Source of the DNA: Saccostrea cucullata
Taxonomy: Eukaryota
Length of the DNA: 64,000 nucleotides
Direction of reading: 5' to 3'
Assembly: GCF_032062105.1 (NCBI RefSeq)
Contig: NW_026921914.1
Coordinates: 1 to 64,000 of the forward strand
Shown: positions 57,788 to 64,000 of the stretch, one piece after another
Layout: each line of letters opens with the position of its first letter
How positions within the stretch are numbered: the stretch's first letter is position 1
Made by a program: the position numbers and the translations under genes
The notes under the pieces: generated by a model
Told to the model about the DNA's origin: nothing
Seen by the model: the letters and a program-made list of their open reading frames with translations, nothing else
Database searches by the model: none

Positions 57788-57878
57788 GTAATGCATGATC
57801 TTGAAGTATATTCCAGCCATACTTTCAGATTAATTCTTTTCATTTTCAAATAAGAAAAATGTTTTTGTTTTCTTTCAG

Positions 57879-58948
57879 AGGTTAACTTAACAGTAGAAAT
57901 AATGAAAAGTTCACCATACCTCGTGGGAGATTTTGGTCATCTGAGCTGTGTTTTTGATTACAAATTTTCCAACTTTTCATGGTCGAGTCCCTCATTTTCG
58001 TGGACTAAAGATGGACAGAACCTGACCCTGTCTGATTTTGTAATAAGTCAAGAATGTAATGGTCACAGATGTGAATCTCTACTCAACATGACAACAGTGG
58101 ACTTTCAACACGAAGGTAGGACTCTGATATTTGCTTGAAATAAAATATTGTAACAACATTGAATGGAATCCTAGGTGAAAGGATTTGTAAAGCGTAGAAG
58201 AACTTGGGGATCAATTTCACTTAAACCATGTATTTTCATCTATTAAGTTTAAATAAAAAAGATATTCAGAAAACACGTCATTAATGGTTAAAAAAACTAA
58301 GAGTTATTTGACAAGATAATTTTACCAACATTTCGATGTTTTAAAAAAAATCAGAACTTAATTAAGCAAGAAAAATTTCTTGTCAGGTGAATATGCCTGT
58401 GAAGCAGTATTGGATGAGTTGGACTTCTACGGCACTGGTACAGCAAATGCTTCTGTTAAGGTCTTGGAAAAACCTATCATTGTAATGGAACCTAATGTCA
58501 CCACTGTCCAAAAGTATGAAAATATCTCAATCAGTTGTTACATTCTAAACGAAGACAAAGCCTATCTTCTTCAAAATGATTCCTTGAAGTGGTGTTTTGC
58601 TGATAGCAGTGAAATAGCAGAAAGTAAGTCATTCTGTGAACAACAGTTATTTAGAATGACATTCTAAATTTGATGAGATACATGTATTGGTAGATAACAC
58701 ATAGAAGTGAAATAATAATTAAGAATATTGGAGAAAATCTATTTGACTTACTTAGATGCATGTATCAACTACCAAAATAAACCTCGAGGAGCTACTTTTT
58801 CTTTTGCTATTTTTCCTTCCAGTAAATAACAGCACTAACTTGAGGCAGTCCTATTTCTTTGAAATGAGGAAATCCGTGTCAATTAATTGTGGATTCAACC
58901 ACTGCTTGACGGCAGGAAAAACAATCAATATTACAATGGTTCCGAAAG
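57879..58948 (+). CDS. Ig-domain cassette copy 1 (exons 57879-58115, 58387-58623, 58823-58948; 200 aa, two Ig-like domains)
   Basis: LSC..FSWTKDG..EGEYAC Ig signature; all exons GT-AG, phase 1-1. Confidence 0.85.
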
Positions 58949-59284
58949 GTTAGTCTTATTATCTCATGTTCTGGAAATTTTACATCTTGCCATTCAATTA
59001 TTGTAGTCATTGTGAAAGATTGAATAAAATCTGGCATTGTGAAAGTTTTGCAACAAACTTCACAACTGTTCCCTACCCTCTGCAGCTATGAGCTTATTTT
59101 TACAATTCATCTGATCAAGTCAAAAACATTTGAAGCATGCTGACAATAATTTTTCAATCTTTAACTCATATTTATTTAGAGAAGGACCACCAATGTTTGG
59201 GTACATGAGGCCAAATTTAAATCCTGCTCTAAGGATTTTAAAAGTCTTAATCAGGAGGAAATCCATGCTTTTGTTTTCTTTCAG

Positions 59285-60358
59285 AGGTTAACTTAACAGT
59301 AGAAATAATGAAAAGTTCACCATACCTCGTGGGAGATTTTGGTCATCTGAGCTGTGTTTTTGATTACAAATTTTCCAACTTTTCATGGTCGAGTCCCTCA
59401 TTTTCGTGGACTAAAGATGGACAGAACCTGACCCTGTCTGATTTTGTAATAAGTCAAGAATGTAATGGTCACAGATGTGAATCTCTACTCAACATGACAA
59501 CAGTGGACTTTCAACACGAAGGTAGGACTCTGATATTTGCTTGAAATAAAATATTGTAACAACATTGAATGGAATCCTAGGTGAAAGGATTTGTAAAGCG
59601 TGGAAGAACTTAGGGATCAATTTCACTTAAACCATGTAATTTCATCTACTAAGTTTAAATAAAAAAAGATATACAGAAAACACGTCATTAATGGTTAAAA
59701 AAACTAAGAGTTATTTGACAAGATTATTTTACCAACATTTCGATGTTTAAAAAAAAAAATTAAGAACTTAATTAAGCAAGAAAAAATTCTTGTCAGGTGA
59801 ATATGCCTGTGAAGCAGTATTGGATGAGTTGGACTTCTACGGCACTGGTACAGCAAATGCTTCTGTTAAGGTCTTGGAAAAACCTATCATTGTAATGGAA
59901 CCTAATGTCACCACTGTCCAAAAGTATGAAAATATCTCAATCAGTTGTTACATTCTAAACGAAGACAAAGCCTATCTTCTTCAAAATGATTCCTTGAAGT
60001 GGTGTTTTGCTGATAGCAGTGAAATAGCAGAAAGTAAGTCATTCTGTGAACAACAGTTATTTAGAATGACATTCTAAATTTGATGAGATACATGTATTGG
60101 TAGATAACACATAGAAGTGAAATAATAATTAAGAATATTGGAGAAAATCTATTTGACTTACTTAGATGCATGTATCAACTACCAAAATAAACCTCGAGGA
60201 GCTACTTTTTCTTTTGCTATTTTTCCTTCCAGTAAATAACAGCACTAACTTGAGGCAGTCCTATTTCTTTGAAATGAGGAAATCCGTGTCAATTAATTGT
60301 GGATTCAACCACTGCTTGACGGCAGGAAAAACAATCAATATTACAATGGTTCCGAAAG
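59285..60358 (+). CDS. Ig-domain cassette copy 2 (exons 59285-59521, 59797-60033, 60233-60358)
   Basis: Same protein as copy 1, splice sites intact. Confidence 0.82.
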
Positions 60359-60694
60359 GTTAGTCTTATTATCTCATGTTCTGGAAATTTTACATCTTGC
60401 CATTCAATTATTGTAGTCATTGTGAAAGATTGAATAAAATCTGGCATTGTGAAAGTTTTGCAACAAACTTCACAACTGTTCCCTACCCTCTGCAGCTATG
60501 AGCTTATTTTTACAATTCATCTGATCAAGTCAAAAACATTTGAAGCATGCTGACAATAATTTTTCAATCTTTAACTCATATTTATTTAGAGAAGGACCAA
60601 CAATGTTTGGGTACATGAGGCCAAATTTAAATCCTGCTCTAAGGATTTTAAAAGTCTTAGTCAGGAGGAAATCCATGCTTTTGTTTTCTTTCAG

Positions 60695-61766: not shown

Positions 61767-62102
61767 GTTAGTCTTATTATCTCATGTTCTGGAAATTTTA
61801 CATCTTGCCATTCAATTATTGTAGTCATTGTGAAAGATTGAATAAAATCTGGCATTGTGAAAGTTTTGCAACAAACTTCACAACTGTTCCCTACCCTCTG
61901 CAGCTATGAGCTTATTTTTACAATTCATCTGATCAAGTCAAAAACATTTGAAGCATGCTGACAATAATTTTTCAATCTTTAACTCATATTTATTTAGAGA
62001 AGGACCACCAATGTTTGGGTACATGAGGCCAAATTTAAATCCTGCTCTAAGGATTTTAAAAGTCTTAATCAGGAGGAAATCCATGCTTATGTTTTCTTTC
62101 AG

Positions 62103-63176
62103 AGGTTAACTTAACAGTAGAAATAATGAAAAGTTCACCATACCTCGTGGGAGATTTTGGTCATCTGAGCTGTGTTTTTGATTACAAATTTTCCAACTTT
62201 TCATGGTCGAGTCCCTCATTTTCGTGGACTAAAGATGGACAGAACCTGACCCTGTCTGATTTTGTAATAAGTCAAGAATGTAATGGCCACAGATGTGAAT
62301 CTCTACTCAACATGACAACAGTGGACTTTCAACACGAAGGTAGGACTCTGATATTTGCTTGAAATAAAATATTGTAACAACATTGAATGGAATCCTAGGT
62401 GAAAGGATTTGTAAAGAGTGGAAGAACTTGGGGATCAATTTCACTTAAAATATGTAATTTCATCTATTAAGTTTAAATAAAAAAACATATACAGAAAACA
62501 CGTCATTAATGGTTAAAAAAAAACTAAGAGTTATTTGACAAGATAATTTTACCAACATTTCGATGTTTTAAAAAAAATCAGAACTTAATTAAGCAAGAAA
62601 AAAAATCTTGTCAGGTGAATATGCCTGTGAAGCAGTATTGGATGAGTTGGACTTCTACGGCACTGGTACAGCAAATGCTTCTGTTAAGGTCTGGGAAAAA
62701 CCTATCATTGTAATGGAACCTAATGTCACCACTGTCCAAAAGTATGAAAATATCTCAATCAGTTGTTTCATTATAAACGAAGACAAAGCCTATCTTCTTC
62801 AAAATGATTCCTTGAAGTGGTGTTTTGCTGATAGCAATGAAATAGCAGAAAGTAAGTCATTCTGTGAACAACAGTTATTTAGAATGACATTCTAAATTTG
62901 ATGAGATACATGTATTGGAAGAAAACACATAGAAGTGAAATAATAATTAAGAATATTGGAGAAAATCTATTTGACTTACTTAGATGCATGTATCAACTAC
63001 CAAAATAAACCTCGAGGAGCTACTTTTTCTTTTGCTATTTTTCCTTCCAGTAAATAACAGCACTAACTTGAGGCAGTCCTATTTCTTTGAAATGAGGAAA
63101 TCCGTGTCAATTAATTGTGGATTCAACCACTGCTTGACGGCAGGAAAAACAATCAATATTACAATGGTTCCGAAAG
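62103..63176 (+). CDS. Ig-domain cassette copy 4 (exons 62103-62339, 62615-62851, 63051-63176)
   Basis: Same protein as copy 3. Confidence 0.82.
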
Positions 63177-63512
63177 GTTAGTCTTATTATCTCATGTTCT
63201 GGAAATTTTACATCTTGCCATTCAATTATTGTAGTCATTGTGAAAGATTGAATAAAATCTGGCATTGTGAAAGTTTTGCAACAAACTTCACAACTGTTCC
63301 CTACCCTCTGCAGCTATGAGCTTATTTTTACAATTCATCTGATCAAGTCAAAAACATTTGAAGCATGCTGACAATAATTTTTCAATCTTTAACTCATATT
63401 TATTTAGAGAAGGACCACCAATGTTTGGGTACATGAGGCCAAATTTAAATCCTGCTCTAAGGATTTTAAAAGTCTTAATCAGGAGGAAATCCATGCTTTT
63501 GTTTTCTTTCAG

Positions 63513-63749
63513 AGGTTAACTTAACAGTAGAAATAATGAAAAGTTCACCATACCTCGTGGGAGATTTTGGTCATCTGAGCTGTGTTTTTGATTACAAATT
63601 TTCCAACTTTTCATGGTCGAGTCCCTCATTTTCGTGGACTAAAGATGGACAGAACCTGACCTTGTCTGATTTTGTAATAAGTCAAGAATGTAATGGTCAC
63701 AGATGTGAATCTCTACTCAACATGACAACAGTGGACTTTCAACACGAAG
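63513..63749 (+). CDS. Ig-domain cassette copy 5, exon A (rest beyond window)
   Basis: Same protein as other exon A copies, GT-AG intact. Confidence 0.8.
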
Positions 63750-64000
63750 GTAGGACTCTGATATTTGCTTGAAATAAAATATTGTAACAACATTGAATGG
63801 AATCCTAGGTGAAAGGATTTGTAAAGCGTACAAGAACTTGGGGATCAATTTCATTTAAACCATGTATTTTCATCTATTAAGTTTAAATAAAAAAGATATT
63901 CAGAAAACACGTCATTAATGGTTAAAAAAACTAAGAGTTATTTGACAAGATAATTTTACCAACATTTCGATGTTTTAAAAAAAATCAGAACTTAATTAAG

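Follow-up and report, generated by a model that had tools for sequence, protein, structure and literature searches.

In a 64,000-nucleotide stretch of the Saccostrea cucullata genome (contig NW_026921914.1, forward strand; hereafter the window) there is a tandem array of at least 4.35 near-identical three-exon units, which in our judgement is likely to be the N-terminal part of an oyster adhesion GPCR. A single Ig-pair module would have been duplicated, and the resulting array homogenized, lengthening the ectodomain as a spacer or stalk.

Results

Structure of the array

The repeat starts at position 57859 and leaves the window at its end, so the 4.35 copies seen are a lower bound (Table 1). 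Successive units have periods of 1406, 1410, 1408 and 1410 bp, and exons A, B and C measure 237, 237 and 126 nt in all four complete units, with a fifth exon A of the same size; the introns of the unit are 271–275, 199 and 336 nt long. Every array exon has AG/GT borders and is of phase 1-1, each unit forms one open frame of 200 codons and thus adds 200 aa, and no stop, frameshift or splice-site loss is present in any of the 13 array exons. Whole units are 98.65–99.3% identical in pairwise comparison (97.75–99.4% for the partial unit 5). The four complete units encode two protein variants only, 4 aa apart, and these four differences all lie in exon B and are all non-synonymous. The earlier note, made from the letters alone, had described such an array of units near-identical even in their introns, with symmetric exons and intact GT-AG borders, and this description was borne out.

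Table 1. Features of the array gene and its surroundings in the window
Feature	Positions	Strand	Remarks
Neighbouring adhesion GPCR of the oyster family, 3′ part (GAIN, GPS, 7TM, tail)	8767..19687	+	PF00002; three TM exons 86-92% identical to S. echinata XP_061176024.1
Candidate first exon 1	33426..33495	+	signal-peptide-like, 23 codons, phase-1 donor GGTAAGA, hydrophobic core; putative link to array gene
Candidate first exon 2	50349..50412	+	21 codons, signal-peptide-like, phase-1 donor; closer to the array than candidate 1
Short mucin-like exon	57617..57787	+	57 aa, 47% Ser/Thr, phase 1-1
Left breakpoint of array	57859..57878	+	repeat includes just the final 20 nt of the original acceptor; X1 and X2 land at the same point
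Unit 1, exon A: Ig1 strands A-E (predicted)	57879..58115	+	
Unit 1, exon B: Ig1 strands F-G and first half of Ig2 (predicted)	58387..58623	+	aligned with model residues 79-156
Unit 1, exon C: second half of Ig2 (predicted)	58823..58948	+	
Unit 2	59285..60358	+	exons 59285-59521, 59797-60033, 60233-60358; protein as unit 1
Unit 3	60695..61766	+	exons 60695-60931, 61205-61441, 61641-61766; 4 aa changed from units 1 and 2, all in exon B
Unit 4	62103..63176	+	exons 62103-62339, 62615-62851, 63051-63176; protein as unit 3
Unit 5	63513..64000	+	exon A 63513-63749, then intron 1 as far as the window end, where the unit is cut

The unit matches the Ig pair of an adhesion GPCR family

Residues 1–199 of the spliced unit align to M. 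gigas XP_065927500.1 (31% identity, E 8e-28), including all eight of its cysteines with cysteines of that protein, and residues 2–197 to S. echinata XP_061176024.1 (30%). When the window's unit was kept out of the HMM, the profile still matched the unit from end to end (E 7e-40), while the identity to the family module over its length is only 25–31%. The family has the architecture stalk-Ig-Ig-HRM-GAIN-7TM, and the unit is colinear with its single Ig pair. Its members, among them the two proteins above, M. gigas XP_065927489.1, O. edulis XP_056016129.1 and C. virginica XP_022293765.2, are automatically named ADGRL3-like or uncharacterised. A single copy of the module was counted in each of the 12 family sequences with a strong module match (5 + 7), although only three of them (P0014, P0020 and P0140) include sequence upstream of the module and the others, which start at or inside it, could have extra copies. 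These counts were made by HMM domains; self-BLAST, which overlooked even the conspicuous 13-aa repeats of P0020, was discarded.

The array gene is probably an oyster adhesion GPCR and a tandem paralogue of the family gene that ends 38 kb upstream of it, with a GAIN-7TM end expected beyond the window. In M. gigas, three family members lie on contigs of equal size (50,364,239), which suggests a cluster. Alternatively, the array could belong not to a membrane GPCR but to a protein that is secreted or truncated, with Ig repeats assembled from N-terminal exons of the family, since the window holds no HRM, GAIN or 7TM exon of the array gene, the array itself running past its end. We consider this decidedly improbable, because the five strong module matches are all 7TM proteins of the family (PF00002, PF01825) and because the neighbour on the same strand is a family adhesion GPCR.

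The Ig character of the unit is not evident from single exons. Pfam gave an Ig family for none of the three array exons; in Atlas, the top match of exon A (0.91) had no family, and Ig families, at ⩽0.88, were leads only, as were the generic Ig hits of the M. gigas module (⩽0.90). Exon A scored with none of the 17 candidates of a word-based homologue search among longer proteins, and phmmer against 1.84 billion representatives returned 13 matches with it, all of them multiple short stretches in repeat proteins and none a usable relative; a JGI metagenome scan with exon B gave 403 pattern matches, none of which was confirmed. The AlphaFold model of the homologous M. gigas module, on the other hand, consists of two beta-sandwiches (pLDDT 82.9), and its best Foldseek matches are Ig tandems, headed by sDscam Ig1-2 at 19% identity, a generic Ig tandem. 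Homology to the family, the predicted fold of the homologous module and the Atlas leads thus support a unit of two putative Ig domains, in agreement with the proposal of a two-Ig cassette amplified in frame within a receptor ectodomain.

Exon borders argue against combinatorial splicing

When placed on the model, the exon borders fall inside both Ig domains, so that the canonical cysteine pair C23/C83 spans exons A and B and the pair C129/C180 spans exons B and C. (The border of exon A was set from the exon B row and the module alignment, the exon A row being overstretched in alignment A1.) These borders bear on whether Dscam-like combinatorial or mutually exclusive splicing could give many distinct ectodomains. 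Every exon is symmetric, and the earlier note is right, as arithmetic, that no exon skip shifts the frame; joining an exon to its successor type in a later unit would also preserve the domain order. However, skipping a single exon keeps the frame yet parts cysteine pairs and would break an Ig domain, and the four units offer just the two protein variants to choose from. Dscam-like diversity is unlikely on these grounds, and such splicing is to us a very remote prospect, largely refuted as far as sequence diversity is concerned; the combinatorial splicing anticipated in the earlier note does not hold up as a source of diversity. A further possibility, a hybrid Ig domain kept in register by skipping of exon B, was rejected, since the D-E strands present in exon A would occur again in exon C.

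Dscam arrays use RNA pairing elements for mutually exclusive choice; exact inverted repeats of ⩾11 nt, searched for as pairing within one unit, were absent. Diverged alternative cassettes, as in Dscam, are absent, and a first-exon scan of the units revealed no signal-peptide-like exon (a hydrophobic ATG-to-phase-1-donor stretch) that could serve each cassette as its own first exon, as in sDscam. Tandem multi-exon Ig-encoding cassettes are common to the oyster array and the 5′ cassettes of Dscam1 and sDscam, but the latter are described as variable and chosen by promoter or splicing, with alternative promoters in chelicerate sDscam (PMC4835542), whereas the oyster units are near-identical and appear built for serial reading.

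A short N-terminal region precedes the array

Two candidate first exons share an identical donor and a similar W-I-x-W core (Table 1), while their DNA similarity is no greater than chance would give (22 of 282 random windows reached as high a score). The short mucin-like exon was found by scans without a splice-site filter; the filtered scan, which ran up to 57700, had missed this exon at 57617. Together with a first exon and the 13 array exons, it gives a gene model of 959 aa with no stops, so that a candidate signal peptide and a long modular N-terminus of mucin and Ig repeats, as in adhesion GPCRs, are in place, the choice of first exon being uncertain. A fresh Ty3/Gypsy element is also found upstream of the array.

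No long Ser/Thr-rich frame was found upstream of the array within the window, and the region before the Ig pairs comes to ~80 aa. As in the family, a Ser/Thr-rich segment precedes the Ig domains, but in relatives with a complete N-terminus 628–741 aa precede the Ig pair (49–51% Ser/Thr in two of them). The family sequences seen thus combine one Ig pair with a long N-terminal region, and the array gene at least 4.35 pairs with a short one, so that the Ig array would restore the length.

An older arrangement, recently homogenized

We have also compared the window with the three metagenome runs listed for it, each with a small share (X1, X2 and X3), at 85% likeness, a level at which joints often come from other organisms or from repeats; the listing included no RNA run, which has no bearing on expression. 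Contigs of two of the three, X1 and X2, which stem from two studies, contain the identical head-to-tail junction, leading from 59253/59256 back to 57859, the shorter arm of the joint being 76 letters in one contig and 255 in the other; X3 yielded two small exon fragments, without any joint. The longer contig, from X2, differs from the window at 30 of 641 and 42 of 514 bases (4.7–8.2%), as compared with 6–12 of ~620 and 0–3 of 514 bases among the window's own units over the same segments. The X1 and X2 contigs stand for at least two tandem units in some relative or paralogue, not for the copy number of this individual. In both runs the unit is covered and the upstream flank mostly is not, which fits a multi-copy unit, but contig depth is no copy number; X2 contigs 12 and 15 close the unit into a loop, like a collapsed array.

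Units 1–4 differ at 25 substitution sites, ten of which are common to two units and fall into three incompatible patterns. The four-gamete test is failed by 23 of the 45 pairs of informative sites, pointing to mosaic units, although with four units only, recurrent mutation or assembly error could contribute. Mosaic units and low divergence within the array are what exchange between copies, by conversion or unequal crossing-over, leaves behind. The split in exon B between units 1/2 and 3/4 could also reflect two joined haplotypes, that is, an assembly artefact, but we give this next to no weight: the 25 sites with their incompatible patterns and the same junction in contigs of two independent studies speak against it, and for the tandem arrangement as such it is refuted.

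A junction shared at 5–8% divergence, together with mosaic units, indicates concerted evolution, and these sequence data suggest a tandem arrangement older than 1% divergence implies, with recent homogenization. Of the "very recent amplification" proposed earlier, the recent homogenization stands, whereas the arrangement itself appears older. For genome scans this means that 99% identity among tandem units dates their last homogenization, not the duplication.

Selection on the array

Among the differences listed between X1/X2 and the unit, all ten indels, at nine places, are intronic (P about 0.007), although homopolymers raise the number of indels in introns. In the exons, 11 of the 13 differences listed change an amino acid, which equals the chance expectation (80% of possible changes alter an amino acid; P 0.49); hence nothing in these changes points to purifying selection on the sequence itself. 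This neutral proportion, the four non-synonymous differences of exon B and the fresh Ty3/Gypsy element would all suit a neutral or weakly constrained amplification, in which extra Ig pairs are tolerated, unequal crossing-over expands and contracts the array, length has no selected function and the gene is perhaps decaying. We nevertheless regard this as unlikely, since all 13 array exons are free of lesions, the listed indels avoid exons and the junction persists across 5–8% divergence.

The same changes could be read as diversifying selection, spread by conversion, on an Ig pair that binds a host or microbial ligand and whose copies multiply the binding sites. Amino-acid changes are many, three adjacent codons (53–55) form a cluster in exon A, the L105W variant of units 3 and 4 recurs in both X1 and X2, and in ADGRE5 ligand affinity changes with domain number (PMC13197933). 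Still, the non-synonymous share does not exceed the neutral expectation, no ligand is known, and the 11 N-glycosylation sequons per unit fit a spacer, though relatives with one Ig pair also have 10 of them; this reading appears to us quite unlikely.

Discussion

Taken together, the best reading of the sequence would be an intragenic array of the LPA KIV-2 type that lengthens an ectodomain. According to the mechanism we favour, a single duplication event copied the three-exon Ig-pair module, with breakpoints in the intron that precedes exon A and in the one that follows exon C, and unequal crossing-over and gene conversion have since kept the array nearly uniform. The default transcript would read all units in series (A-B-C, A-B-C and so on), assuming that the gene is expressed and all units are included. 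An Ig domain is about 4 nm long, so each unit would add two domains, or roughly 8 nm, to the stretch that separates a short mucin tip from the HRM-GAIN-7TM base. As a whole, the array may serve as a multivalent stalk or a spacer, which would grow or shrink by whole units if copy number is polymorphic.

Like the oyster array, the human LPA KIV-2 is a tandem repeat within a gene, with a unit that covers several exons and preserves the reading frame; its copies vary little in sequence and bear marks of duplication or gene conversion, and the oyster units share its near-identity including introns. The KIV-2 unit, however, is a 5.5 kb two-exon kringle unit of a secreted protein with proven polymorphism from 1 to >40 copies (PMC4378929), whereas the oyster unit is 1.4 kb, has three exons, encodes an Ig pair of a probable receptor and may vary in copy number. 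ADGRE5/CD97, with 3–5 EGF-like repeats, is also an adhesion GPCR with a variable number of ectodomain domains, which alters its ligand affinity; there the number is reported to vary by alternative splicing (PMC13197933), but the oyster domains are multiplied in the genome, homogenized and split by exon borders. A structural parallel is the engineered Drosophila dCIRL-3xCD4, in which a tandem Ig spacer of about 20 nm inserted N-terminal of HRM-GAIN flattened the mechanical response (PMC5548486), although this is an artificial construct in a latrophilin, another receptor of another phylum, while the oyster receptor is known from sequence alone. A literature search, mostly outside subscription journals, turned up descriptions neither of the array gene nor of a comparable array in any adhesion GPCR from a bivalve.

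If the preferred reading is correct, the intragenic exon-array copy-number variants typified by LPA KIV-2 would gain an example in a receptor. A bolder and rather doubtful extension is that the family's long mucin stalk has been replaced by a recombining Ig-pair array, the alleles of which form a natural length ladder in steps of ~8 nm that sets reach or force threshold and is kept by concerted evolution across lineages 5–8% apart. Engineered spacers have demonstrated that ectodomain length sets the mechanosensitivity of an adhesion GPCR (PMC5548486). A recombining array of identical Ig pairs would allow the relation between stalk length and signalling to be tested with natural alleles and, if this extension is true, would amount to an inherited length rheostat of an adhesion GPCR, a natural counterpart of the dCIRL-3xCD4 experiment.

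Array structure and gene identity

The array begins at 57859 and continues beyond the right end of the window, within which 4.35 units of 98.65–99.3% identity are present (Table). Exons A, B and C of 237, 237 and 126 nt are all bordered by AG and GT and in phase 1-1; every unit lengthens the frame by 200 stop-free codons, so that the cassette had been described correctly in the earlier note. All 13 array exons of the window are free of stops and have intact splice sites. Units 1 and 2 encode one protein and units 3 and 4 another, the two types being 4 residues apart, all in exon B.

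Single array exons gave no useful relatives as queries. After splicing, the unit can be aligned over its whole length (30–31%) with one segment of Saccostrea echinata XP_061176024.1 and of Magallana gigas XP_065927500.1, and an HMM built from the relatives only was found to match the window unit with E 7e-40, which independently validates the splice model. XP_061176024.1, to which array exon B on its own is similar (33%, E 4e-11), is at the same time the best relative of the neighbour gene, whose secretin-type 7TM exons lie at 8.8–19.7 kb on the strand of the array (86–92% identity over three TM exons) and whose own Ig module falls outside the window. The relatives are adhesion GPCRs in which an N-terminus that is rich in Ser/Thr or contains EGF is followed by an Ig pair, HRM, GAIN/GPS and 7TM; the Ig pair occurs once in all 12 strong-match sequences, of which only 3 reach upstream of it. 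By homology, the encoded protein is a member of the oyster Ig-Ig-HRM-GAIN family, in agreement with the receptor proposed earlier. The array gene is in all likelihood a tandem paralogue of other family members, with a predicted HRM-GAIN-7TM half that would lie outside the window. The matches point to an oyster as the host.

The N-terminal length of the family varies through several kinds of repeats: the stalk of M. gigas XP_065927500.1 consists of 13-aa Ser/Thr repeats in a long tandem run (around residues 75–625), and a paralogue carries EGF-like repeats ahead of the Ig pair. In another mollusc group, the octopuses, adhesion GPCRs have undergone lineage-specific expansion and form tandem clusters (PMC6408891). 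Literature searches at the level of titles and abstract openings gave nothing on the array gene, nor on a comparable array in any bivalve adhesion GPCR.

Table. Features of the window
Feature	Position	Strand	Remarks
Exon A starts, units 1–5	57879, 59285, 60695, 62103, 63513	+	
Ser/Thr-rich exon	57617–57787	+	57 aa, 47% Ser/Thr; phase 1-1; precedes unit 1
Candidate signal-peptide-like exon 1	33426–33495	+	phase-1 donor
Candidate signal-peptide-like exon 2	50349–50412	+	phase-1 donor
Neighbour adhesion GPCR, 3′ part	8767–19687	+	close to S. echinata XP_061176024.1
Ty3/Gypsy LTR retrotransposon	37550–44929	+	apparently intact, recent; separates candidate first exons 1 and 2; short target-site duplication; LTRs of 702 bp with 99.6% identity; gag-pol frame of 1661 aa, then 228-aa zinc-finger-like frame
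Small LTR-like element	34008–36100		two ~620-bp direct repeats (97.4%) flanking a minus-strand 236-aa gag-like frame
168-bp satellite	12984–14701		~10 copies in a neighbour gene intron; resembles oyster 166-bp satellites
Probable tRNA-derived SINE	47462–47534	+	tRNA-Thr(CGT)-like head, ~250 bp behind
1.7-kb repeat	29732–31421, 51889–53635		two diverged copies (78%), opposite orientation; perfect internal duplications (301 and 218 bp)

Reality and age of the tandem arrangement

Three metagenome sequencing runs, which contain a small share of the stretch, were compared with one unit and its flank at 85% likeness. Two of the three, from different studies, each have a contig whose sequence passes from the end of intron 3 directly back to 57859, the breakpoint of the array in the window (shorter sides 76 and 255 letters). 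Units in tandem are thus present outside this assembly and the array is a real feature; the contigs are proof of two or more such units rather than of an exact number, their source may be another species or a paralogue, and joints found at this likeness are often those of other organisms. The second contig differs from unit 1 at 30/641 and 42/514 bases, where the window units differ from one another at 6–12 and 0–3, and the two contigs differ at 7 or more sites in intron 3. A junction common to sequences 5–8% apart, together with in-array copies only 0.3–1.4% apart, shows the pattern of concerted evolution; the "very recent" amplification of the earlier note therefore fits the homogenisation of the copies and is overstated for the junction. 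Over 57868–58098, each of the two runs has, besides the close copies, a contig that resembles exon A at about 85% (29/195 and 21/147 bases differ), which suggests that a further, less closely related copy or paralogue exists.

At 10 of the variable sites a base is shared by two units; these sites group the units in three mutually incompatible ways (7, 2 and 1 sites), and the four-gamete test fails for 23 of 45 site pairs. The units are therefore mosaic. There was one duplication, which had its breakpoints in two introns, and the copies have since exchanged sequence. Intron 1 (58193–58377 and equivalents) holds 14 of the 25 sites at which units 1–4 differ by substitution, and exon C plus intron 3 hold 3, indicating that homogenisation has been uneven along the unit.

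Exon borders, splicing and constraint

The M. gigas module, folded from an alignment that includes the window exons (mean pLDDT 82.9), is predicted to form two beta-sandwiches followed by HRM, and its Foldseek matches are Ig tandems (sDscam Ig1-2, ICAM-1 and titin). In this model exon B covers residues 79–156, the A/B border coincides with the beginning of Ig1 strand F and the B/C border lies in mid-Ig2. The cysteine pairs C23/C83 and C129/C180 (unit numbering), taken as canonical B–F pairs from Ig topology, each straddle an intron. Skipping a single exon would keep the frame and destroy an Ig domain; the architecture survives only the removal of whole units, which alters length and not specificity. 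With no signal-peptide exon inside any unit, the array is also unlike Dscam1 and sDscam (PMC4835542). Combinatorial splicing, for which potential had been seen, is probably wrong, since the borders split Ig domains and there are only two proteins. In the intron preceding exon A of unit 3 (~60660), the sole branch-point-like motif near the acceptor carries an A-to-G change seen in this unit only, which could favour skipping of that exon.

In the comparison with the two runs, all 10 within-unit indel entries listed (9 places) are intronic (P ~0.007), and 11 of the 13 exonic substitutions listed alter the amino acid, which is the neutral proportion. Frame and length appear conserved while residues drift, among the differences listed; this fits a spacer, and also weak constraint or diversifying selection. 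Genetically, the unit structure of the array resembles that of LPA KIV-2, in which the repeat likewise spans several exons, stays in frame and varies little from copy to copy (PMC4378929), copy-number polymorphism being the defining feature of KIV-2.

Ectodomain length and possible consequences

An upstream scan for signal-peptide exons gave seven hits at five places. Two share an identical donor and a similar W-I-x-W core, and the other three have weaker donors or lie inside the retroelement. The two are candidate alternative first exons, or one may be a leftover of another paralogue; a gene model starting with the exon at 33426–33495 is open over 959 aa. There is no long Ser/Thr-rich frame between 33.5 and 57.6 kb, compared with the 628–741 residues ahead of the Ig pair in complete relatives, so the Ig array brings the ectodomain back to a relatives-like length, a restoration that may serve a purpose.

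If all units are spliced in series, they would form a glycosylated stalk of at least 8–9 Ig domains, ~35 nm or more at ~4 nm per domain, above HRM-GAIN. In Drosophila dCIRL, a ~20 nm spacer of 3xCD4 Ig flattened the mechanosensory response (PMC5548486), and the ligand affinity of ADGRE5 depends on EGF repeat number (PMC13197933). By analogy with these results, a change in unit number could alter the reach, force transmission or avidity of the receptor.
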